Assembly (NCBI GenBank): GCA_964412955.1
Contig: CAYPQV010000014.1
Span: forward strand, 20,014-84,013
Source: an uncultured Hyphomicrobiales bacterium
Lineage (GTDB): Bacteria; Pseudomonadota; Alphaproteobacteria; Rhodospirillales; 2-12-FULL-67-15
DNA length: 64,000 nucleotides
Reading direction: 5' to 3'
Position 1 is the stretch's first letter. Every line of letters starts with the position of its first letter. The notes under the pieces were generated by a model. The model was given only the letters and a program-made list of their open reading frames with translations. It was not told the DNA's origin and did no database searches. The position numbers and the translations under genes are program-made. This document shows, in pieces, positions 1-9,172 of the stretch.

Positions 1-1614
1 GACCTGCCGGTGCAATACGGCAAACCGGAGGAGTTTAAATATTACAAGAACGCCCATCCCAAACCGGACATCGGCGCGGTCAGTCGAGACGATCTCATCA
101 AGACCATCCGCAAGTGCCATCAAACCTTATGGGGCGGCGGCCGTCTCTCGCCGCCGATGGCCTTCGGGGAACTCACCAAGCTGATTTTCTTGAAGACGCG
201 AGATGAGAAAAAACCGCGCAAAAAAGGCGAGCCCTACAACTTTCAGATCAAGACTAACGAAACGCCAAAGCGCCTAGCTGATCGCATTAAAGCCCTGTAC
301 GCGGCGGAGCGGCAGGAAGAGCCAGATGTCTTCAACGATGACATCAAAATCGACGACAGCACTCTGAAAAACGTTGTGCTCCACCTGGAAGGCGTCAATC
401 TCACGGCGACTGATCTTGACACCAAGGGCGTTGCCTTCGAGCAATTCATGGATGGCTTTTTCAAGGGCGACTTCGGCCAATACTTCACGCCGCGCAACAT
501 CATTGCCTTTGCTGTTCAAATGCTCGACATCAAAGCAGATGACACGGTGATGGATCCGGCTTGCGGCTCCGGCGGGTTTCTGTTGCATGCTCTCGACCAT
601 GTGCGCAGGCTGGCCGATGATTATTTTCCCGGCGAAGGGGGTGGCGATGGAGAAGAAGAAAGTGGCCGCCATCGAGATTATTGGCATAGTTTTGCCAAAG
701 AGCGCCTCTTCGGCATCGAAATCAATGAAGAGATTGCGCGTGTCGCCAAAATGAACATGATCGTCCACGATGACGGCCACACGAACGTTATCGGAAGCGA
801 TGCTCTGGAGCCATTGGCCGCCATCTCCAGGAAGAACCATGACTTCGCCACCATCGTCGGTATCGACATGGAAACCGGACGACGCGACGAAAGGAAGGGT
901 TTCACTAAGATTCCTACCAATCCCCCTTTTGGTGCGGTCATCAAAGATGATCTGCATGACTACCTTTCCAGCTACGAACTTTCCCGCTACGTCGCCAAGG
1001 GTAGTAGCAAAAACGACGATGATTTGGAGGACGAAAGCGCCGACCCCACCGCTGGCAAGAAGGCCATCAAGCAGCGGGCCAGCGTCAAGACAGAGATCAT
1101 TTACTGTGAGCGGGTCTGGCAGCTCCTCAAACCGGGCGGACAAGCCGCCGTTATCCTGCCGGACGGGCTGCTAACTAACGCCAGTCTGCAGGGGGTTCGC
1201 GATTGGCTGCTGGAGCGCTTCAAGGTGCTGGCTGTGGTGTCGTTGCCGCAATTCGCGTTCGCTCATTTCGGCGCCGGGGTGAAGTCCAGCGTGGTATTCC
1301 TGGAAAAGCGCGCCGCCAAATTGCGCGCCTTGGGCGACGAGGCCATATTCATGGCCATGGCCGAGAACATCGGATACGACGCAACAGGCCGTACTACGTA
1401 TCAAGTAGATGTGTTGGACGAAACGCTGGGGCAGACCCGTATTGAGCGCCAACGCTGCGATCTTTTCGACTGGCAAGTCAACTTCGATTGGATTCCTGGC
1501 GAAGGCAAGAAGCCCGGCCACTGGTCGGAGCGTCATCGCCATGTGTTGCCAGGCAGCGGTTTGCTTGGTCAATACGCCGCCTTCAAGCGGGACCCAAAAC
1601 CTTTTTTCGTCTAG
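1..1614 (+). CDS. hsdM: Type I restriction-modification DNA methyltransferase subunit HsdM (5' end cut by window edge)
   Basis: The reading frame is open to nt 1. It has AdoMet motif I 'DPACGSGGFL' and N6-adenine catalytic motif 'NPPFG', and is directly followed by an HsdS gene. Confidence 0.9.
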   Translation, partial: DLPVQYGKPEEFKYYKNAHPKPDIGAVSRDDLIKTIRKCHQTLWGGGRLSPPMAFGELTKLIFLKTRDEKKPRKKGEPYNFQIKTNETPKRLADRIKALYAAERQEEPDVFNDDIKIDDSTLKNVVLHLEGVNLTATDLDTKGVAFEQFMDGFFKGDFGQYFTPRNIIAFAVQMLDIKADDTVMDPACGSGGFLLHALDHVRRLADDYFPGEGGGDGEEESGRHRDYWHSFAKERLFGIEINEEIARVAKMNMIVHDDGHTNVIGSDALEPLAAISRKNHDFATIVGIDMETGRRDERKGFTKIPTNPPFGAVIKDDLHDYLSSYELSRYVAKGSSKNDDDLEDESADPTAGKKAIKQRASVKTEIIYCERVWQLLKPGGQAAVILPDGLLTNASLQGVRDWLLERFKVLAVVSLPQFAFAHFGAGVKSSVVFLEKRAAKLRALGDEAIFMAMAENIGYDATGRTTYQVDVLDETLGQTRIERQRCDLFDWQVNFDWIPGEGKKPGHWSERHRHVLPGSGLLGQYAAFKRDPKPFFV

Positions 1615-1649
1615 CCCCCGTTCCCGCAGGGCAGCCAATTTGCTTTGCG

Positions 1650-2999
1650 GTGCGGCGGGGGGAACTGCCAGGAGAGCGACTTGACCCAGGTTATGTGCGC
1701 AATGCTAAGAAACAAAGTTACGTTTATCCCAAACGCAGTCTAGCGAGCTTGGTATCAGAAGAGCCCTGCTATGGCACATCGGCACAAGCAATAGAGCGAA
1801 TCAGCGAGGATCAACCTCGCTATATCCGCATCACAGATTACGGGGAAGATGGCATCACATTGCCGCATGAGTTTGTAGCTGCCGAGGAGTGGGCAGATAA
1901 ACACCGGCTTTCGGTAGGTGACCTATTGTTTGCTCGAAGCGGGGCAACCGTCGGCAAGACCTATCTACATGATGCACGATTTGATCCAGCGGTCTTTGCG
2001 GGTTATTGCATCCGATTCAGGTTCAACAATGAGGTTGAGCCCAAATTCGTCTATGGCTTCACCAAAACAGATGCCTATGCATCATGGGTTGCTGCGGTTC
2101 AGCGCCCAGCAGGGCAGCCGAATATCAACAAGGAAGAATTCAAGTCTTTAGAAATACCTCTTCCGCCCCTCGATATCCAACGACACCTAGTGGCCGAACT
2201 CGACGCAGCTCGCGCCGAGCGCGACCGCGCGTTGGCAAAGGCAGAGCAGTTGCTATCGAGCTTCGAACCGTGGGCAATTAAGGAAATGGGTCTATCAATC
2301 CCCAAAGGCCATGGCCGCAAGGTCTACGCAATTAGAAGGAATGTTGTCACCTCCCGGATCGACCCTTTCTTTCACGCTCCTGAATTCGTTGAGATAGAAC
2401 GGGTGATTCAAGCCGCGTCTCATGCGCCGCTTGGTTCTCTTGTTCAGTTCTCTAGCGACACCCGGAATCCGAAAGAACAATCGGAACCAACCTTCCGATA
2501 CATCGAAATAAGCGGTGTTGACCGTCGCAGAGGACAGGCTAAGGCATCCGTCATTTCCGCCGATAATGCACCGAGCCGCGCACGGATGGTTGTTCAGCCG
2601 GATGACATCATCGTCAGCCTTACACGGCCCCATCATGGTTCGATTGCTTTGCTTAACGAATATCATGAGGGGAGTATAGCCTCTACCGGATTTGCAGTAA
2701 TTCGTCATGTTGATGAAAGCCGAGTCAGTCGTACATTTTTGTGGGCCACCTTGAGACTTTCGCTGTCCCTTAAGCAAATGCTTCGCCGGTCGAGCGGTGG
2801 CAATTATCCTGCAATTACGCAGGACGAGTTAGCGAACGTACTGATCCCGATCCCTTGCGTCTCCATACAAAATAAGATTGTCGAGGAGGTTGTTCATCGC
2901 AACAGCGAAGCCGATCGGCTGGAAGCCCGCGCCGAAGCCGTCTGGCGCAAAGCTCGAGAGCGCTTCGAGCAGCTGCTCTTGCAAGGAGATAAAGTATGA
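1650..2999 (+). CDS. hsdS: Type I restriction-modification specificity subunit HsdS
   Basis: Two-TRD layout with a central conserved helix 'LPPLDIQRHLVAELDAARAERDRAL' and a C-terminal conserved helix 'IQNKIVEEVVHRNSEADRLEARAEAVW'. The TRD motif 'ARSGATVGKTY' is present. The ORF is open from 1488, but GTG 1650 (after the hsdM stop) is preferred; the start is uncertain. Confidence 0.8.
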   Translation: MRRGELPGERLDPGYVRNAKKQSYVYPKRSLASLVSEEPCYGTSAQAIERISEDQPRYIRITDYGEDGITLPHEFVAAEEWADKHRLSVGDLLFARSGATVGKTYLHDARFDPAVFAGYCIRFRFNNEVEPKFVYGFTKTDAYASWVAAVQRPAGQPNINKEEFKSLEIPLPPLDIQRHLVAELDAARAERDRALAKAEQLLSSFEPWAIKEMGLSIPKGHGRKVYAIRRNVVTSRIDPFFHAPEFVEIERVIQAASHAPLGSLVQFSSDTRNPKEQSEPTFRYIEISGVDRRRGQAKASVISADNAPSRARMVVQPDDIIVSLTRPHHGSIALLNEYHEGSIASTGFAVIRHVDESRVSRTFLWATLRLSLSLKQMLRRSSGGNYPAITQDELANVLIPIPCVSIQNKIVEEVVHRNSEADRLEARAEAVWRKARERFEQLLLQGDKV

Positions 3000-4621
3000 T
3001 CCTGTCTGGCATCCTGCACACTTCCCTGGGAGGCTTCACGGTTATTCGGGGTGTCGCTCCCCTTGGGGAACTTGCGCGATGCTCGCGTTTTGATGGTGCC
3101 TACCAGCGCAATCTGATCGAAACGCATAAGGAAGAGATCGAGCGCTTCTTAAACGAGCAACAATATCTATTTTTTCCTGAAGTGATCTTATCTGCATCGC
3201 TGCAATTCGATTTTAAAGCTTACAAGGGTAAACGTACTGTCGCTCCGGTGACAGACATCCTTTCTGGATCAGGCTTTACCTCCAACGTTAACGGCCTATC
3301 CGTGAAGACTGTTACCACAAAACTTCCAAAAAAATTAGAAGTTATTGGCGTCGCTAACGCACCACAACTGGCCTACCTGTATTTGCCGGAGGAACAACTC
3401 GACAAGGGCCTTAAATTATTTCGCATCGACGGCAACCATCGTCTGAGCGCCGCGAATGATTTGAAGCCTGGTGAGATTAATTACATCTTACCCACACCTT
3501 TTTGCATCGTGCTACATGATGAGCCGACGCAAGCACAGCGTTTTGAGAGAGTCGTTTTTCACAATATCAATAGCAAGCAGATACCACTAACTTCCGAAGA
3601 GAATTTACGCCTCATTCTTCAGACAGGTGAGGGTGCGTTATTTTCTGACGAAGATTTTCTTATCAAACCGAGTTTTGGCCCGGCGTATTACTTGGCACGG
3701 AAGCTCTTACCGCAGTTCAGTGCGGATTATCTCGGAGGGCTCGCCAGGCATTTCGAGAATCGGTATACCCTTGCCCTTGCCCTTGCTCAGTTCCTTGTCG
3801 CAAAAGATGAAGAGCTAAAAAAAGCTGTCGATGCGAACAATCTTGATTCGCAAGTCTCGCGTTTGCGGAGTGCACTTAAATCAGTCAACGCTATCTATGA
3901 GGAATCTCACCTGAACCGTCTCCAGGAATCAGGCTGCCATGGCGTGCTCATCGCCTTTGCTTACTTCGCTATCAAGAACGATGGTAAGCAGCTTCCTGCT
4001 TTTGCGCGCTGGGTGATAGGGAACCGCATCGACCGGCTTGCTCCGGCGACTACCACGCGGAGTCTGGGCTACCATTATCACCTGGGACGCACCCAGGCAG
4101 TGGATGCGGCCAGCTTAGTCGAGGTATTTGAAAGTGTGCTGACATCTCGTCGCCGCGAGGTATTCGTATCTATGGAATTCGGGACGCACACCGACGCGGT
4201 CTATGCGGCGATTGAGGCCGCCATCGCACAGGTGAATAAGAGTCATTACCTGCAGCAAGCCGGTCTGGCCCTGAAAACTGTCCGTATTGATCGCGTAAAC
4301 AAAGGGCACAGTTACACCATTACCGACGAAATATTGCAAATTATCGACGGCTGCGGGCTCCTTATCGCCGATCTGACACAAAGTAACAAAAACGTTTACC
4401 ACGAGGTCGGATTTTTGATGGGCCTGAACCAAGGGCGGAGAGAGCCGCACGAGAACTTCGTCTTGATCGCAGACGGCAACAAAATAAAAGACGAGGCCAT
4501 TGGGTTCAACTTACGCCCATGGCAGCAGATTCGCTTTAACGACACATTGGAGCTGACTAAGCGGCTGGTCAATTCACTGGAACACCACTTCGAATTGAAG
4601 GGGTCGGGGCCAGCAGTATGA
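2996..4621 (+). CDS. Uncharacterised RM-linked protein: N-terminal DGQHR/ParB(DndB)-like domain, helical middle region, C-terminal TIR-like / nucleoside 2-deoxyribosyltransferase-like domain
   Basis: The ATG at 2996 overlaps the hsdS stop (ATGA), with an AAGGAG Shine-Dalgarno at 2983-2988. 'AYQRNL' (aa 35-40) and 'FRIDGNHRLSA' (aa 142-152) match the DGQHR-family layout. 'VFVSMEF' (aa 389-395) and 'GLLIADLTQSNKNVYHEVGFLMGL' (aa 67-90 of the C-terminal block) match TIR-like/NDT-like domains. The domain calls are by eye only. Confidence 0.6.
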   Translation: MILSGILHTSLGGFTVIRGVAPLGELARCSRFDGAYQRNLIETHKEEIERFLNEQQYLFFPEVILSASLQFDFKAYKGKRTVAPVTDILSGSGFTSNVNGLSVKTVTTKLPKKLEVIGVANAPQLAYLYLPEEQLDKGLKLFRIDGNHRLSAANDLKPGEINYILPTPFCIVLHDEPTQAQRFERVVFHNINSKQIPLTSEENLRLILQTGEGALFSDEDFLIKPSFGPAYYLARKLLPQFSADYLGGLARHFENRYTLALALAQFLVAKDEELKKAVDANNLDSQVSRLRSALKSVNAIYEESHLNRLQESGCHGVLIAFAYFAIKNDGKQLPAFARWVIGNRIDRLAPATTTRSLGYHYHLGRTQAVDAASLVEVFESVLTSRRREVFVSMEFGTHTDAVYAAIEAAIAQVNKSHYLQQAGLALKTVRIDRVNKGHSYTITDEILQIIDGCGLLIADLTQSNKNVYHEVGFLMGLNQGRREPHENFVLIADGNKIKDEAIGFNLRPWQQIRFNDTLELTKRLVNSLEHHFELKGSGPAV

Positions 4622-4773
4622 TCGGAGTTGCTGTCGGTCTAGGGATGATAACTTTTTTGCTTTAGTAAATTTCTAGAACTATGTTGGTTGATAAATATCG
4701 GGCTGTGATCCCAAAAACTATGACTATTTTGCGCCGTGGACAGTTGGCCTAGTAGTGTGAACGATAAAGGTGG

Positions 4774-5946
4774 CTAGGGATTATCCTCCGGGTCTTCTGG
4801 CGGGCCGTTCCCGGCGGCTTGGGCCAGGGCCACCCCCGGCAAGGGCCCACCGTTCTTAAACCACATGGCCTTCGCCCTTTGGGCGCGATCTTGAAGCAAT
4901 CCTAACCGGAACCGCCCGCCCCCCGTTTCCGGAGTCGTGGTGTAATTTCGGACGATGCTGCAAGGCTCTCGATATGGACTAAACCGGGGCATGGGCGCGG
5001 TTCGGGCAATAAGCTCGTTCTCGCGTGGCGACAGCTTTAGGCTTTGGACCGGCATATCTCGATTCTGACGTTTGACCCGAGCCAAGTTTAAGCCCCGGTC
5101 ATTCGCAATCGCGGCGATCTTGCAGCCGTCGTTGTCCAGTTCCCGGCAAAACTCGGCAAAGGCCCCCATGGGCTGCATCAGTTTAAGCTGCCGTATCTCA
5201 ATTGAGAGCCATGCAAGATCACCGGGCGACAGGTGGCCCATTTCAGTCGGCTTGAAAGGGTACTTAACCGCTTCGTCGGCTTTACGGAGGCGGCCCGAAT
5301 CGCGCCAGTGTGCCCCGACATAGGATCGGGTCCGGGCAAGGAACTTCTCCCATTGCTCGGGAGTGAGCTTTTGGCGTGGCGCATATAGGATATTGGCGTG
5401 GAGATGGAAAGTCCGGGCCTGGTCAATAGTGAACTCAGTCCCCCGAAAAATCATCTCCACGCCGAATTTTTGCCGCGCCAGGTTGGCCCATTTGGACAAG
5501 AGGCGATGAAAGCTCTGAATCTCACCTCGCAAGTTGTTGCCCAGGGGAATACGTGGCCCGGCGGTGACGACGGCGAATCGAACGTAAGAACCTTTATTCC
5601 AAGTCTTAAGAAAATAGCGCAGGGCATTTCGCATCGGCGCGCGTTCTTGTTGCGCGACTAGGGGAAGAAAGCGAATTCGCCGGAACTGATCGGGGGTATC
5701 GACGCACCCTGTTACATCGCCAATCAGGCTAACCGGATTATTGCGCTGATAGGCTGGGATACCGGCTGATTCCAAACTATCCGCCAATGTACGGGTTTGC
5801 GCCTTTAGGGCTTCATTGCGTCGGCGAACTTTACGCCAAACATGCAAAGGCACGCCAATGCCGGTATTGGCAGTTAACAAGTCCTCGATTTTAGTGGCGG
5901 CTTCGCCGCCGTTTTTGTCATGCCGGGCCTTAGGGTGGCCCGGCAT
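4774..5946 (-). CDS. Rolling-circle replication initiator-like / HUH endonuclease-like protein
   Basis: HUH-type motif 'FHLHANILY' (aa 180-188). About 45 aa downstream lies 'EAVKYPFKP', resembling the E..KY..K active-site Tyr motif of pC194/pUB110-type Rep proteins. The gene lies in the island backbone. Confidence 0.5.
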   Translation of the reverse strand: MPGHPKARHDKNGGEAATKIEDLLTANTGIGVPLHVWRKVRRRNEALKAQTRTLADSLESAGIPAYQRNNPVSLIGDVTGCVDTPDQFRRIRFLPLVAQQERAPMRNALRYFLKTWNKGSYVRFAVVTAGPRIPLGNNLRGEIQSFHRLLSKWANLARQKFGVEMIFRGTEFTIDQARTFHLHANILYAPRQKLTPEQWEKFLARTRSYVGAHWRDSGRLRKADEAVKYPFKPTEMGHLSPGDLAWLSIEIRQLKLMQPMGAFAEFCRELDNDGCKIAAIANDRGLNLARVKRQNRDMPVQSLKLSPRENELIARTAPMPRFSPYREPCSIVRNYTTTPETGGGRFRLGLLQDRAQRAKAMWFKNGGPLPGVALAQAAGNGPPEDPEDNP

Positions 5947-6031
5947 GACGGGTTCCGGCGCGTTCCGCGCCGGGGCCGCCTTGGGTTTTAGGGCCGGATT
6001 CGATTTTTTGATTCAGCATCGGTGAAAGAGC

Positions 6032-6061
6032 GGGGCGCGGGGGAAAGTGCCCCCGCGCCCC
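6032..6061. repeat. Perfect 12-bp GC inverted repeat (GGGGCGCGGGGG / CCCCCGCGCCCC) with a 6-nt loop, between the alpA-like and rep-like genes
   Basis: Read directly: arms at 6032-6043 and 6050-6061, loop AAAGTG. It lies about 90 bp upstream of the rep-like start codon on the minus strand. Confidence 0.6.
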
Positions 6062-6147
6062 TTTGGTGCCTTCCGGCCCCAAAATCCCCGGCGGTGCGGC
6101 CAGCCCCACCGGGGCAAAACCGGGGAGAGTGAGGGCGCGGCTGGGCA

Positions 6148-6387
6148 TCAGGCCGCATCCTGGGAAGTATTGAACCGGCGGTGCTTCTCGATCCAGGCGA
6201 TCAAGTCTCGGCGGCAATAACGGATAGATCGGCTGGAAATCTTGATGAAAGCGGGCCCACCCCCGCGTACTCGCCAGTTTTGAAGGGCGCGGACGGTGTA
6301 GCCAAGGAAACGCGCCGCGTCTTGCTCGTTAAGAAGTTGGTCGAAGTAATCAGGCGAAACCGGATGTTGGTGCGCCAAGGTATCCAT
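6148..6387 (-). CDS. AlpA/excisionase-family helix-turn-helix DNA-binding protein
   Basis: 79 aa. 'LLNEQDAARFLGYTVRALQNWRVRGGGPAFIKISSRSIRYCRRDLIAWI' is typical of AlpA/Xis-type HTH_17 proteins found in integrative islands. Confidence 0.8.
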   Translation of the reverse strand: MDTLAHQHPVSPDYFDQLLNEQDAARFLGYTVRALQNWRVRGGGPAFIKISSRSIRYCRRDLIAWIEKHRRFNTSQDAA

Positions 6388-6475
6388 GTTGGTGTTCTCC
6401 GAATAGCGATTGAGCTACTCGGACAACATCCATGAAAACAAAATCTCGAAAAACATCTATAAATAGGGTTGGAAT

Positions 6476-7237
6476 TTATAGTTTCGAGATTTGTTTTCTT
6501 TCATTGAAAAGGGGGCTAACTATTTTGGCTAACGTTTTATCGTTAAGGCCTTTGGTTTTCTTAGGATCATCGGGAAAATGCGTCAAAACCCACTCCCGTA
6601 TCATCGGGAAATAATGCTTCATGGGTTTCGAGAAATTAATTGCGCCTGAGGCATGTAACGTATTGAAAGCCTCCGAAATTTGATGCTCTCGGCTTGGGCG
6701 GCCAGGGCTCTTTATCCCTTCAGGGAAATGGCGTGCGATTAACTCGGCTTCTTGCGCTGGGGCAATCAAACGAAGCCCGGCCATTTCGAGGCCATTTCCC
6801 TTCGCGTAGTCCTTCTCCCATTTGATTTCGCCTGCCCAAAGGTCAAGCGGAGCCGGTTGGGGAATATCTTCAGCCCGACGAGGCAAGGTAAAGCCATAAG
6901 CCTTAAGCTTTCCAGACTGAATCCACGCGAGGCAATTTGCCTTAAGGGTGCGATCTAGTGCGAGGTAAGCGGATACGTCTTTATTATATTTACCCATCCG
7001 ATCTGAAGGCGATTTTTTAGACTGTATAACTTCGGTGAAGGCCGCCAAGCCTTTGTCAATTCCGGCAGAGTCTCTGGCTACGACATATTTCTGCCTAAAA
7101 TCGCTCGACGCAAAACTTACAAAGGCGGAGCTGAGAGGAATTCCGCGTTTCCAAAATATCCAAGGGTCCATGATTGTTCTTGGTGATAAGCCAAGCCTCC
7201 GAATTGGTAGGGATAAAATAGGATTTGTTTTTGGCAA
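6476..7237 (-). CDS. Hypothetical protein (island orphan; no recognisable motif)
   Basis: A 253-aa ORF in the most AT-rich part of the window, on the same strand as the alpA-like and rep-like genes. I recognise no motifs in it. Confidence 0.5.
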   Translation of the reverse strand: MPKTNPILSLPIRRLGLSPRTIMDPWIFWKRGIPLSSAFVSFASSDFRQKYVVARDSAGIDKGLAAFTEVIQSKKSPSDRMGKYNKDVSAYLALDRTLKANCLAWIQSGKLKAYGFTLPRRAEDIPQPAPLDLWAGEIKWEKDYAKGNGLEMAGLRLIAPAQEAELIARHFPEGIKSPGRPSREHQISEAFNTLHASGAINFSKPMKHYFPMIREWVLTHFPDDPKKTKGLNDKTLAKIVSPLFNERKQISKL

Positions 7238-7275
7238 AAATTAGGCAGTTGGGCATTGGCGGCGGAGGAAGTGTT

Positions 7276-7424
7276 ACGCCCCGTATACAGCTACGTATAC
7301 GGGGCGTCTGATTGGATAACGTGTTCTAGGGGGGCGTTATCGTTTTTCCCCGTTACGTATACGTTACGAGAGGCTCGTTAAATGGGGCTCCGTATACGGG
7401 CCCGTATACGTATACGTAACGGGG
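7276..7424. repeat. Palindrome cluster A: six GTATAC cores with C/G-run flanks
   Basis: GTATAC occurs at 7283, 7295, 7357, 7392, 7404 and 7410. There is a 13-bp inverted repeat at 7276-7288/7295-7307 and a 16-bp inverted repeat at 7348-7363/7409-7424. Confidence 0.85.
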
Positions 7425-7452
7425 GGGGCGGATCGGTCGCGCGAGACTACAA

Positions 7453-7597
7453 CCCTAGGGGTATTTCTCGCGAAGAATCCCCTTAGGGGAGTATATCGAG
7501 ACTGCCAACGAAAAACCCCTAGGGGTTTTTGGCCCCTAGGGGGGCATGTCGGGGCTGCTGATGAAAAGTCCCTAGGGACTTTATGTCCCTAGGGGCT
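7453..7597. repeat. Palindrome cluster B: five CCTAGG and one CCTTAGG cores with C/G-run flanks
   Basis: CCTAGG occurs at 7454, 7518, 7535, 7571 and 7588. TCCCCTTAGGGGA spans 7478-7490. There is a perfect 20-bp palindrome at 7511-7530 and an 18-bp palindrome at 7565-7582. Confidence 0.85.
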
Positions 7598-9013
7598 CGG
7601 TCGCGGAACATCAGATTGTGCGATTCCCGGTACGGGGATTTGCCCCGTACCGGGAATAGTCGGTACTGGATTTTGGGCCATACTCGGTACTGACTTTTTG
7701 TCGGTACTGACGCTTGCCGTCTTATTCTGACTTCCGCCGAGGCTGTCCCCGTACCGGGATACAGTGTTCTCATTGGCCGGAGGATTAGCCCGGTACGGGG
7801 AATTCCCGGTACCGGGATTTTCCGCCTGGGCCTGTGTGGGGCTTTCGGGGGCGTTGTCATTGCCGCCAAAGAGGGCGCGGGCGATCTCCCCGGATATGCG
7901 ATTGGCGGAATCCCGGATGGGGTTGTCAGCCAAGTGGGCATATCGGGCCGTGGTTTGCACTTGGGAATGGCCCAGGAGCTTGCCGATCATGGGAAGGGCC
8001 TCGCCAATGGCAAGAGCACCCGAGGCAAATGTATGTCGAAGGTCATGTATTCGCACGTCATCAAGTCCCGCCCGGGCACGAATGCGCCGCCAAGGGCGTT
8101 CCAGGTCCGTTAAGTGCTGCTTTTCGACCTGGCCGGTAATGACGTACTCGTTGCCTTTGGTCTTCTCTATCCCGTCTAGAACCTTTCTGGCCGCTTCCCC
8201 GAGGTAAACGATCTTTGGACCGGTCTTGGAATCGGGCAGGGTGATGGTGTTCCCGTTAACGTAAGACCATTTTAGGGTTTGGATTTCTCCCCGGCGGCAG
8301 CCGGTCAGGATCAGGAGCTTGAACGCGGCAATGGCGGCCTTGGATTCCGGGTTCTCCTTAAGCTCATCCTCGAAGGCTTGCCCGAGCGCGGCCATTTCTT
8401 TGGCTGATAAAAACCTTTGGCGTTTGTCTTCCCGGTATTTCTTCACATGGTGGCAGGGATTAGACCCGTCCGGGCGCAAGCCCCAGACTTCCGCCAGATT
8501 GAACATCTTGGAAAGGACGCCCAGGGTCCGGTTCGCCTGATAGGGGATATGCCCCATGCCCTGGTGCAGCTTGGCGATATCGGACCGCTTAACGTCGATA
8601 ACCCTAAAAGCACCAATGGCCGGAGCGATGAACAGGCCAATAGACCGCTCATACTCTTTGGCCGTACTCAGCTTGCAGTGATGGGCGACATGCTCCCTAA
8701 GGAAACGGTCGCATACGTCCTTGATGGTAGGGGACTTGCGGCGGGTGTTGATCTCCTCGGCGGGGTTGTCGCCCTTGGCAACCAGGCCAAGAAGCTCCTT
8801 GGCCCGTTTACGGGCTTCGTCCGGGGTCAGGGTGCCATGACGGCCGATATTCACCCGCCGGGTGCGACCCCCGGAGCGATACTGCACCAGATATGTTTTG
8901 CGCCCGCCGGGCAGTACCCGAAGGGCAAAGCCCGGCAAGCCCTCATCGAAAACGAAGTAGTCCTTCGTCTCGGGCTTCGCGCTATCGACAAAACGCTTGG
9001 TCAGTTTCGGCAT
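7589..9013 (-). CDS. int: Tyrosine recombinase / phage-type integrase (P4-like, with N-terminal arm-binding domain)
   Basis: 'GFALRVLPGGRKTYLVQYR' matches the DUF4102-type N-terminus. Catalytic motifs 'HDLRHTFAS' and 'LLGHSQVQTTARYAHL' are present. ATG 9013 (MPKLTKRF) is preferred over 9031. An unusual tail of about 80 aa is encoded by repeat cluster C. Confidence 0.9.
   Translation of the reverse strand: MPKLTKRFVDSAKPETKDYFVFDEGLPGFALRVLPGGRKTYLVQYRSGGRTRRVNIGRHGTLTPDEARKRAKELLGLVAKGDNPAEEINTRRKSPTIKDVCDRFLREHVAHHCKLSTAKEYERSIGLFIAPAIGAFRVIDVKRSDIAKLHQGMGHIPYQANRTLGVLSKMFNLAEVWGLRPDGSNPCHHVKKYREDKRQRFLSAKEMAALGQAFEDELKENPESKAAIAAFKLLILTGCRRGEIQTLKWSYVNGNTITLPDSKTGPKIVYLGEAARKVLDGIEKTKGNEYVITGQVEKQHLTDLERPWRRIRARAGLDDVRIHDLRHTFASGALAIGEALPMIGKLLGHSQVQTTARYAHLADNPIRDSANRISGEIARALFGGNDNAPESPTQAQAENPGTGNSPYRANPPANENTVSRYGDSLGGSQNKTASVSTDKKSVPSMAQNPVPTIPGTGQIPVPGIAQSDVPRPSP
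7623..7817. repeat. Palindrome/iteron cluster C: GGTAC/GTACC cores (inside the 3' end of the int ORF)
   Basis: There is a 15-bp inverted repeat at 7623-7637/7643-7657. TCGGTACTG direct repeats occur at 7660, 7684 and 7701. CCCCGTACCGGGA spans 7747-7759, CCCGGTACGGGG spans 7789-7800, and the palindrome TCCCGGTACCGGGA spans 7804-7817. Confidence 0.85.
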
Positions 9014-9172
9014 GGCGATTTCTGGAAGCAATCTGGAAGCAGTTGGAAGCAGAATCGGGAGTCAACCAGCGTGAGTCAGTGTAGACCCGCACCGTGAATC
9101 CTCTAAGCAAAACAAGGCGAAATGATGGTGTTTCGTAGGTCAGAGAAGTTGAGCGAAACAGTCCGAGCGAAA

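Follow-up and report, generated by a model that had tools for sequence, protein, structure and literature searches.

A DndB-like module fused to an NDT/TIR-superfamily domain is encoded with an RM-type methyltransferase and specificity subunit: a candidate accessory effector

A three-gene operon near the left end of a 64,000-nucleotide stretch of DNA from an uncultured Hyphomicrobiales bacterium (assembly GCA_964412955.1, contig CAYPQV010000014.1, positions 20,014 to 84,013 of the forward strand; called the window below) probably represents an undescribed, methylation-based defence that derives from restriction-modification (RM) systems and carries an accessory effector. Its first two genes, M and S, encode an RM-type methyltransferase chain and a specificity subunit, and its third gene, T, is judged from profile searches and structure prediction to encode a DndB-like module (DGQHR, of the ParB/sulfiredoxin fold) fused to a domain of the nucleoside 2-deoxyribosyltransferase (NDT)/TIR superfamily. 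Four lines of evidence identify the fusion: a profile scan of the relatives of T, an alignment of the family profile with sequences in the PDB, an AlphaFold2 (AF2) model, and the Foldseek matches of that model. An earlier note on this DNA had guessed at a DGQHR/ParB/DndB-like N-terminus and a TIR-like or NDT-like C-terminus, and both predicted folds were found when profile and structure searches were run on the two ends of the protein.

In an initial AF2 model of T, for which 44 close homologues were used, the predicted local distance difference test score (pLDDT) of the first 200 residues stayed below 50, and this model was dropped for a second one, which was built on 107 diverse sequences and reached a pLDDT of 92.3 and a predicted template modelling score of 0.83. 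The second model divides T into four regions, namely an alpha/beta N-domain, a helical middle domain, a disordered linker (residues 350-368) and a flavodoxin-like C-domain (bounds of the three folded regions in the table). Across the 107 sequences, which extend down to 25% identity, fourteen residues are invariant (R18, S30, Q37, R38, D145, N147, H148, R149, F188, N192, F390, N466, V467 and E470), and this set takes in the signature motifs of DGQHR proteins together with a candidate catalytic glutamate. Domain matches were counted by scanning 93 diverse members of the family individually and accepting matches at E<=0.01; the T protein of the window, taken alone, matches no Pfam family and has no sequence relative in the PDB. 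The possibility that the middle domain is a HEPN domain was set aside, because the diverse alignment conserves no Rx4-6H motif.

The N-terminal assignment is carried by the DGQHR model TIGR03187, which matches 88 of the 93 relatives (best 4.5e-16) and finds T of the window at E=1.1e-7 with 31.8 bits, under its cut-off of 58.85. Models of more narrowly defined proteins are matched by smaller numbers of relatives: 21 match DpdB, 17 the Dnd-associated DGQHR model TIGR04172, 16 Pfam DndB, and two TIGR03233 DndB, while GmrSD_N is matched weakly by six and GmrSD_C by none. For T of the window the DpdB model gives 16.5 bits against a cut-off of 300, and there is a weak PADLOC match to DpdB as well. 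The motifs 'AYQRNL', 'FRIDGNHRLSA' and 'FHNINSKQIPL' are all read in the translation, and within DGNHR the glycine, G146, is at least 90% conserved across the 107 sequences. When the N-terminal and middle parts were compared by Foldseek with the viral models of BFVD, the matches were DndB-like 'DNA-sulfur modification-associated' proteins (3.8e-4), DUF262/GmrSD_N and ParB-like nuclease domains; alignments with the 'DNA-sulfur modification-associated' proteins run over about 320 columns. Among PDB matches of the T model, Noc stands at rank 43. By model and by profile, residues 1-345 resemble full-length DndB-type proteins. No dnd or dpd gene lies beside T in the loci inspected or among the neighbours clustered from 78 loci.

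Within the linker, the motif GYHYHLG (residues 358-364; window 4067-4087) is invariant among the 44 close homologues and is not kept in distant relatives. AlphaFold leaves this His/Tyr-rich loop disordered, and the loop could bind a metal or mediate an interaction.

Beyond the linker, the stretch from nucleotide 4157 translates as VFVSMEF...IADLTQSNKNVYHEVGFLMGL. Besides the four residues of the C-domain that are invariant (F390, N466, V467 and E470), conservation reaches 90% or more at D459 and G472. In the AF2 model E470 lies at the start of a helix (465-480) that follows a strand (455-459), and when the family profile was aligned with PDB sequences this residue, in the motif 'NVYHE(V/I)G', fell on the glutamate of 'GTAFEVG' in Trypanosoma brucei NDT (2a0k). 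E98 of LlNDT is cited as the nucleophile, and the role of the aligned glutamate would rest on homology to E98 (bioRxiv 10.1101/2023.08.16.553469). The same profile search found NDTs alone, and these marginally (2a0k, E=0.06).

The Pfam NDT model Nuc_deoxyrib_tr (PF05014) is matched by 27 of the 93 relatives, the best at 1.3e-8, and finds nothing in T of the window at E<=0.1; the CAP12/Pycsar-type TIR model (CAP12-PCTIR_TIR) is matched by two relatives, Pfam TIR models have no match in T of the window, and the PADLOC TIR effector model gives 0.0032 for T of the window and 2.4e-7 for one relative. Structure comparison returned both families. Against the PDB, Foldseek matched the C-domain to the SPARTA TIR-APAZ protein at 5e-4 and to the TIR domains of MyD88, AbTir, RUN1 and RPP1, and equally well to DNPH1/RCL, MilB and NDT, with template modelling scores (normalised to the target) of 0.6-0.73; among viral models the matches were a CAP12-type TIR, an NDT and a CMP hydrolase. 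NDT and TIR proteins share the flavodoxin-like fold that the C-domain shows. The usual substrates of NDT-family enzymes are free nucleosides or nucleotides, and that of TIR enzymes is NAD+. Because PF05014 matches 27 relatives and the TIR family two, and because the PDB profile search finds NDTs alone, the C-domain is, as far as profiles can place it, nearer to NDT than to canonical TIR.

The ORF (open reading frame) of T is a real gene under selection, because a single search returned 887 homologues at E<=1e-3 (the best 120 of these are full-length and 63-82% identical), because an exhaustive HMMER scan resolves the family into 520 clusters at 50% identity, and because conservation over the full length reaches down to about 25-26% identity. 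The names that the sources give these homologues do not go beyond 'hypothetical protein' and 'DGQHR domain-containing protein'. When one genome per species was scanned, relatives of T turned up in Alpha-, Beta-, Gamma- and Deltaproteobacteria, Bacteroidota, Verrucomicrobiota and Planctomycetota, and further in Thermotogota, Firmicutes, Cyanobacteria, Nitrospinota and lineages of the candidate phyla radiation (CPR). Homologues were absent from the 50,697 phage records and from the complete Escherichia coli genomes that were searched. The local features described in the earlier note, namely the ORF with its ATGA at 2996-2999, by which the start of T overlaps the TGA stop of S (2997-2999), the AAGGAG ribosome-binding sequence, the DGNHR codons and the quoted motifs, were all recovered from the sequence, as was its observation that no helicase or nuclease gene, and hence no hsdR, follows T, the next gene (4774-5946) being convergent.

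In the plasmid records searched, T occurs only as fragments or as one deletion remnant. The remnant lies on Leisingera thetidis plasmid NZ_CP109788.1 (L085, 5879-8122), where the C-terminal part of a 747-aa coding sequence annotated 'N-6 DNA methylase' is similar to residues 137-517 of T at 36% identity; it looks like a decayed copy in which a deletion fused M to the rest of T and S was lost. A conserved 165-aa fragment, mostly unannotated or 'hypothetical', is present in 29 plasmid records of the Ralstonia solanacearum group, mostly megaplasmids of about 2 Mb (for example CP052129.1, 629447-629938). It corresponds to residues 197-361 of T at 59% identity and, by this alignment, all that remains of T in it is the helical middle domain.

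How tightly T is bound to its neighbours was assessed in 78 loci with a T homologue, drawn from one genome per species, of which 59 combine a full-length T with 4.2 kb or more of upstream sequence. An M homologue lies upstream of T on the same strand in 58 of these 59 loci, which span more than 10 phyla, usually in the order M-S-T. S is detectable in 43 of the 59, and most of the loci without a detectable S have a gap of about 1.1-2 kb between M and T, room for a divergent S. When the neighbouring ORFs of the 78 loci were clustered, only T and M/S were widely shared and no other family occurred in more than 7 loci. The upstream ORF and T share a 4-nt stop/start overlap in 41 of 69 loci, and the identities of T and M to the proteins of the window co-vary (Spearman 0.75, n=65). 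T thus depends strictly on M-S, as M lies upstream in all but one locus, no other family is shared, the overlap is kept and the two proteins co-vary. The association with RM genes that the earlier note proposed to look for among homologues was therefore found, with the qualification that no hsdR is conserved in the 78 loci and none is present in the three (L001, L003 and L005) inspected gene by gene. The sole rearranged order seen was M-T-S, in L061 (7890-12978), and L050 is the sole locus with a full-length T but no M upstream.

The window begins within M. On a public contig of identical sequence (L001) the full gene occupies 1181-3271, encodes 697 residues and begins 476 nt before the window start; the part outside the window (L001 1181-1690) encodes a PD-(D/E)xK (HSDR_N_2) domain. 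Full-length M matches PF13588 HSDR_N_2 at 9.8e-11 and N6_Mtase at 1.2e-30. The nuclease residues E44, E45, D82, E99 and K101 are conserved in 100% of 54 orthologues from T loci and of 70 further orthologues, in which the methyltransferase motif NPPF is also fully conserved, and these nuclease residues are intact in orthologues with and without T. The best solved relative is RM.BsaXI (9.3e-37), the similarity extending only over the methyltransferase part, residues 159-472, and the best NCBIfam match is MAD2 (1.9e-87, residues 41-633), at 294 bits against a cut-off of 720. The HsdM equivalog TIGR00497 gives 29-30 bits against a cut-off of 242.75. Because of the PD-(D/E)xK domain outside the window, and because RM.BsaXI and MAD2 are the nearest relatives, M is classed by these profiles as a fusion of a PD-(D/E)xK nuclease-like domain and a methyltransferase, of the type IIB/MAD2 kind, and not as a plain HsdM. 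The earlier note had placed T third in an hsdM-hsdS operon; the third position stands, but the plain, nuclease-less type I hsdM does not, since M carries this conserved domain beyond the window. S matches the PADLOC models Specificity_I and mad5, and NCBIfam MAD5 at 107 bits against a cut-off of 400. With a PD-(D/E)xK RM chain, a gamma-class N6-adenine methyltransferase and a separate S, the architecture of the pair fits that of type IIB enzymes, of which BsaXI is a complete example as an (RM)2S complex (PMC11997821).

The relationship looks different when it is followed from M-S to T. In a reverse survey, metagenome contigs were scanned with the M alignment, yielding 39 M loci with at least 3.3 kb of downstream sequence, and T is present in 10 of them. 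On this count, the idea that this M-S family always requires T was rejected. In the loci without T, the slot after S holds a protein with an Rx4H motif (9 loci), an Abi_2-like protein, or no same-strand gene. The T-(M-S) link is thus one-way, in that T needs M-S and M-S does without T, and because the other loci have a different third gene or none, the M-S pair is a chassis that stands by itself and has an accessory slot of variable content, T being one specialised occupant of that slot. Accessory or abortive effectors that can be exchanged for one another would be expected to show such variety of third genes.

The Rx4H family (L087, L092, L094 at 4267-4956, L097-L099, L101, L103 and L109) comprises proteins of 223-266 aa, for example 229 aa, with a conserved, HEPN-like RRxRRNxFFHS motif and no Pfam or PADLOC match; these are probably HEPN-type accessory effectors, so far undescribed, that belong to the same M-S chassis. 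In one subclade of T, a Ymh-family HEPN gene (PF09509, 7e-23, with a weak PD-Lambda-3_B match) lies between S and T (L119-L122, L124 and L125; for example L119 3855-4586), and in L112, L122, L124 and L125 the gene just downstream of T has Mrr_cat/PDC-S02 matches. A single M-S pair can therefore carry several accessory effectors at once. Further recurrent neighbours in these M-S loci are an RloC/PrrC-like AAA_13 ABC ATPase (PADLOC PDC-S06) and, upstream of M, GmrSD. The earlier note had drawn an analogy with effectors of the PrrC/RloC type, and the analogy gained support from the HEPN/Abi-like proteins and the RloC-like ABC ATPase of M-S loci that lack T.

Regarding function, T is read here, tentatively and as something short of probable, as a dedicated accessory effector of M-S, which would sense DNA, its methylation state or the state of the M-S complex and act as an N-glycosidase on NAD+ or nucleotides. 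The reading is drawn by analogy and starts from direct observations: the T gene, its domain folds and invariant residues, its operon coupling, the one-way dependence, and the intact motifs of M. M and S would form a type IIB/MAD2-like complex that recognises a bipartite site, methylates host DNA and probably restricts by itself. T would be built like GmrSD, SspE or NsnA, with a ParB-fold DGQHR switch that depends on nucleoside triphosphates (NTPs) and a helical DNA-binding part, and its effector would be an NDT/TIR-superfamily N-glycosidase domain in the place of the nuclease, with E470 as the putative catalytic residue. Translated together with S, T would work with the M-S complex or be held in check by it, and would be released or oligomerised when unmodified foreign DNA is engaged or the complex is disabled. 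The C-domain would then cleave the N-glycosidic bonds of NAD(P)+ or adenine (deoxy)nucleotides, and phage replication would be stopped in an abortive or second-line defence. The reading has precedents. The best one for the effector is Retron-Eco1, whose NDT-like N-glycosidase effector hydrolyses NAD(P)+ or depletes adenine nucleosides under the control of a DNA methylation event (PMC12673091; bioRxiv 10.1101/2023.08.16.553469), the MAD2/MAD5 pair of MADS is an M-S pair that serves other effectors (bioRxiv 10.1101/2023.03.30.534895), and ParB-DUF262 modules sense DNA for the effectors to which they are fused or coupled (PMC12065111).

Several points weigh against an effector role. T of the window alone scores under the curated cut-offs of every model that it matches. 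A search for T relatives in which another effector takes the C-terminal place found none, so that the argument from swappable effectors covers the gene slot and not the architecture of T itself. Sequence and fold fit NDT-type nucleosides, TIR-type NAD+ or DNA alike as the substrate, and do not decide among them. The DGQHR proteins with known roles, DndB and DpdB, sit in DNA-modification and not in effector modules (PMC4507180; PMC12839542), and by analogy with them a modification or regulatory role of T fits at least as well.

Another view, here considered unlikely, is that T is an integral restriction subunit, a ParB-fold NTPase that loads at, or slides from, unmethylated M-S sites and licenses cutting by the PD-(D/E)xK domain of M. 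T would then replace the HsdR motor for long-range communication, and its C-domain would serve in oligomerisation or regulation. The tight translational coupling, the co-variation with M, the invariant DGQHR motif and the lack of a helicase or hsdR gene in any locus inspected or clustered all agree with this view, and ParB-superfamily proteins are NTP-dependent DNA switches (PMC12065111, PMC12839542). However, T is missing from some loci whose M-S pair belongs to the same family and keeps its nuclease motifs, the third gene there being a different one or absent, so the chassis can in general do without T, and a purely structural C-domain would leave unexplained an invariant glutamate at the catalytic position of NDT and TIR enzymes. 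A reading with a rather poor chance of being right has DNA bases as the target of T. Directed by M-S or by the DndB-like module that it carries, T would be either a restriction glycosylase that makes abasic sites in unmethylated DNA or a single-chain base exchanger akin to DpdA/DpdB. NDT chemistry is the cleavage or transfer of a deoxyribose N-glycosidic bond through a glutamate nucleophile, with which E470 is aligned, and the NDT-like domain of T is fused to a predicted DNA-binding module; moreover, the DGQHR ATPase DpdB powers base exchange in DNA by DpdA (PMC12839542), and NDT domains of Abi-type proteins have been proposed to attack glycosidic bonds of DNA (PMC3710099). Yet the annotations of the matched NDT/TIR-fold enzymes include no DNA glycosylase or transglycosylase, NAD+ or mononucleotides are the substrates of the closest solved folds, and the other occupants of the slot are HEPN/Abi-like, which points to effectors that target RNA or metabolites. 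If it were true, bases would be excised or exchanged where recognition sites are unmethylated, and an NDT-fold enzyme would work on polymeric DNA within self/non-self discrimination.

Catalysis is given up altogether if T is a DndB-like regulator that binds DNA and nucleotides and tunes the expression or activity of M-S, with the C-domain as a non-catalytic ligand sensor. Flavodoxin-like domains of the NDT, TIR or SLOG type can be nucleotide sensors, which counts for this reading, as does the likeness of the N-terminal and middle parts of T to full-length DndB-type proteins. It also fits the known roles of DGQHR proteins, among them DndB, a negative regulator of dnd modification genes (PMC4507180; PMC3632139). 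The regulator is nevertheless held to be improbable: N466/V467/E470, at the catalytic position, do not vary over 26-100% identity, RM regulators are normally small and encoded upstream whereas T has 541 residues and is coupled downstream, and Pfam detects no helix-turn-helix (HTH) domain in T. Finally, defence genes cluster and T lies on a mobile island, so that T might be an independent single-gene defence or toxin that lands beside RM genes in defence islands by tendency. The context data nearly exclude this, since in 58 of 59 loci T is preceded, on its own strand, by a member of the same M family, order and overlap are kept from Proteobacteria to CPR, and T has no other conserved neighbour; such independence is very improbable indeed.

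With an accessory effector as the preferred, if tentative, reading of T, the operon can be set against known systems. In MADS, an M-S pair methylates a bipartite site and tells self from non-self on behalf of further effector genes (bioRxiv 10.1101/2023.03.30.534895); M matches MAD2 nearly full-length, including the N-terminal nuclease-like domain, and S matches MAD5. The scores, however, stay well under the cut-offs (294 against 720 and 107 against 400), MAD3, 4, 6, 7 and 8 are absent from M-S-T, and T matches no MADS model, whereas MAD6-8 are mandatory in the model of the MADS authors (bioRxiv 10.1101/2023.03.30.534895). Type IIB systems such as BsaXI and BcgI, of the form (RM)2S, share with M-S the RM fusion chain and a separate S with two target-recognition domains (PMC11997821), but they are two-gene systems, and M-S-T has a conserved and coupled third gene. 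With type I RM only the S subunit with its two target-recognition domains is shared, as M-S-T lacks HsdR and an HsdM equivalog score. The PrrC, RloC and HEPN genes of type I RM loci, proposed to be second-line effectors linked to the RM enzyme (PMC3710099), resemble T as accessory effector genes in an M-S operon, and HEPN-like or RloC-like genes do occur in related loci; T differs in that Pfam, NCBIfam and PADLOC find no ABC ATPase, HEPN or anticodon-nuclease domain in it, in having no hsdR, and in a predicted chemistry that is N-glycosidic and not RNA cleavage.

GmrSD, SspE and NsnA of Menshen combine a ParB/sulfiredoxin-fold NTPase-type module with DGxxR, a helical DNA-binding part and an effector (PMC12065111), as T is predicted to do, and SspE likewise accompanies a DNA-modification module; unlike GmrSD and SspE, T belongs to the DGQHR/DndB branch (88/93) and not to DUF262 (6/93), and has an NDT/TIR effector with no HNH/DUF1524 nuclease. 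DndB and DpdB share with T the DGQHR domain with its QR and DG(Q/N)HR motifs, and residues 1-345 of T are like whole DndB-type proteins, but T has an additional, catalytic-looking C-domain, no dnd or dpd neighbours, and model scores far below cut-off. Retron-Eco1 (Ec86) offers an NDT-fold defence effector with a catalytic glutamate, joined to a DNA-recognising part with a methylation-controlled DNA ligand (PMC12673091; bioRxiv 10.1101/2023.08.16.553469), whereas M-S-T has no reverse transcriptase or multicopy single-stranded DNA (msDNA) and a different sensor module; the Retron-Eco1 effector was not among the PDB profile matches of T or its top 50 Foldseek matches. The TIR NADase effectors (SPARTA TIR-APAZ, Thoeris, CBASS/Pycsar TIR) give T its best Foldseek E-values and have their glutamate in the third helix, but T of the window has no Pfam TIR match, and CAP12-type TIR is found in two relatives against 27 for NDT. 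On these comparisons, then, T falls outside DndB/DpdB proper, PrrC/RloC and GmrSD/SspE, and the operon falls outside type I RM and MADS, whereas M-S has the type IIB architecture, with its conserved third gene outside the type IIB definition.

The earlier note had recognised no named system in this architecture, and none came to light in the databases and literature searched. Pfam, NCBIfam release 20 (June 2026, which holds the MADS models) and PADLOC v2 (2023) contain no model of the T family. Full-text literature searches, with REBASE and the current DefenseFinder outside their scope, found no description of a DGQHR-NDT/TIR architecture beside M-S, and comparative-genomics papers on Dnd and BREX make no mention of it. 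Judged by these comparisons, what is new in RM-derived defence is the domain fusion of T and its effector class, the parts themselves being known.

In the window, M-S-T is followed by four genes on the opposite strand, which are listed in the table and include a tyrosine integrase. The GC content is 48-58% over positions 1-9000 and about 65% past 9500, and because this step lies near the integrase gene, M-S-T is taken on composition to be cargo of a low-GC integrative island whose left end lies beyond the window. No tRNA gene or tRNA integration site was found at the island junction. All three M-S-T loci inspected gene by gene have a mobile or island setting, namely the island of the window, an integrative and conjugative element of Pectobacterium and a small Achromobacter island. 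Directly upstream of M, L001 (170-880) carries a 236-aa ORF (MQDRYVGDIGDYAKYALLR...) that has no match in Pfam, NCBIfam or PHROGs and was not found in other loci.

Table. Features of the M-S-T operon and the adjoining genes, in coordinates of the window
Feature	Position	Strand	Description or basis
M gene, 3' part (codons ~160-697)	1-1614	+	gamma-class N6-adenine DNA methyltransferase (DPACGSGGF, TNPPFG)
S gene, 449 aa, two target-recognition domains	1650-2999 (L001 3307-4656)	+	Methylase_S 4.4e-18 in two stretches
Shine-Dalgarno AAGGAG for T	2983-2988	+	inside the end of the S gene, 7 nt before ATG; read from sequence
T gene	2996-4621	+	541 aa; DGQHR/DndB-like module, linker, NDT/TIR-like domain (predicted)
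Alpha/beta DGQHR (ParB/sulfiredoxin-fold) domain, aa 1-200	2996-3595	+	TIGR03187, invariant columns, Foldseek BFVD
Codons Q37-R38, 'YQR' motif of DGQHR proteins	3104-3109	+	invariant
Codons D145-G-N-H-R149 (gac ggc aac cat cgt)	3428-3442	+	DGQHR motif, N for Q; D, N, H and R invariant
All-helical middle domain, aa 201-345	3596-4030	+	AF2 secondary structure and pLDDT; BFVD alignments; Pfam DndB in 16/93
Flavodoxin-like NDT/TIR-superfamily domain, aa 370-535	4103-4600	+	Foldseek, PF05014, family profile, PADLOC
Codon E470, invariant Glu, candidate catalytic residue	4403-4405	+	start of third helix; aligned to Glu of NDT 'FEVG' motif
Gene of unassigned function, 390 aa, convergent with T	4774-5946	-	no match in Pfam, NCBIfam, PADLOC, PHROGs
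AlpA/excisionase-like HTH_17 gene	6148-6387	-	Pfam
Gene of unassigned function, 253 aa	6476-7237	-	no match in Pfam, NCBIfam, PADLOC, PHROGs
Tyrosine integrase	7589-9031	-	Pfam; PHROGs integrase 5e-68

If the proposed role of T is correct, a widespread system, with at least 520 clusters of T, would link the epigenetic recognition of self and non-self with an N-glycosidase effector, beside or instead of the cleavage of DNA. A new effector class would be added to RM-derived defences, and the DGQHR/DndB domain would gain a role outside the phosphorothioation and deazaguanine systems. The survey of M-S loci also reveals the pair of a MAD2-like nuclease-methyltransferase and S as a common chassis that recruits interchangeable third genes, whether T, HEPN-like or Abi_2-like, and the compact three-gene operon makes testable the long-standing question of how RM enzymes communicate with abortive or second-line effectors.

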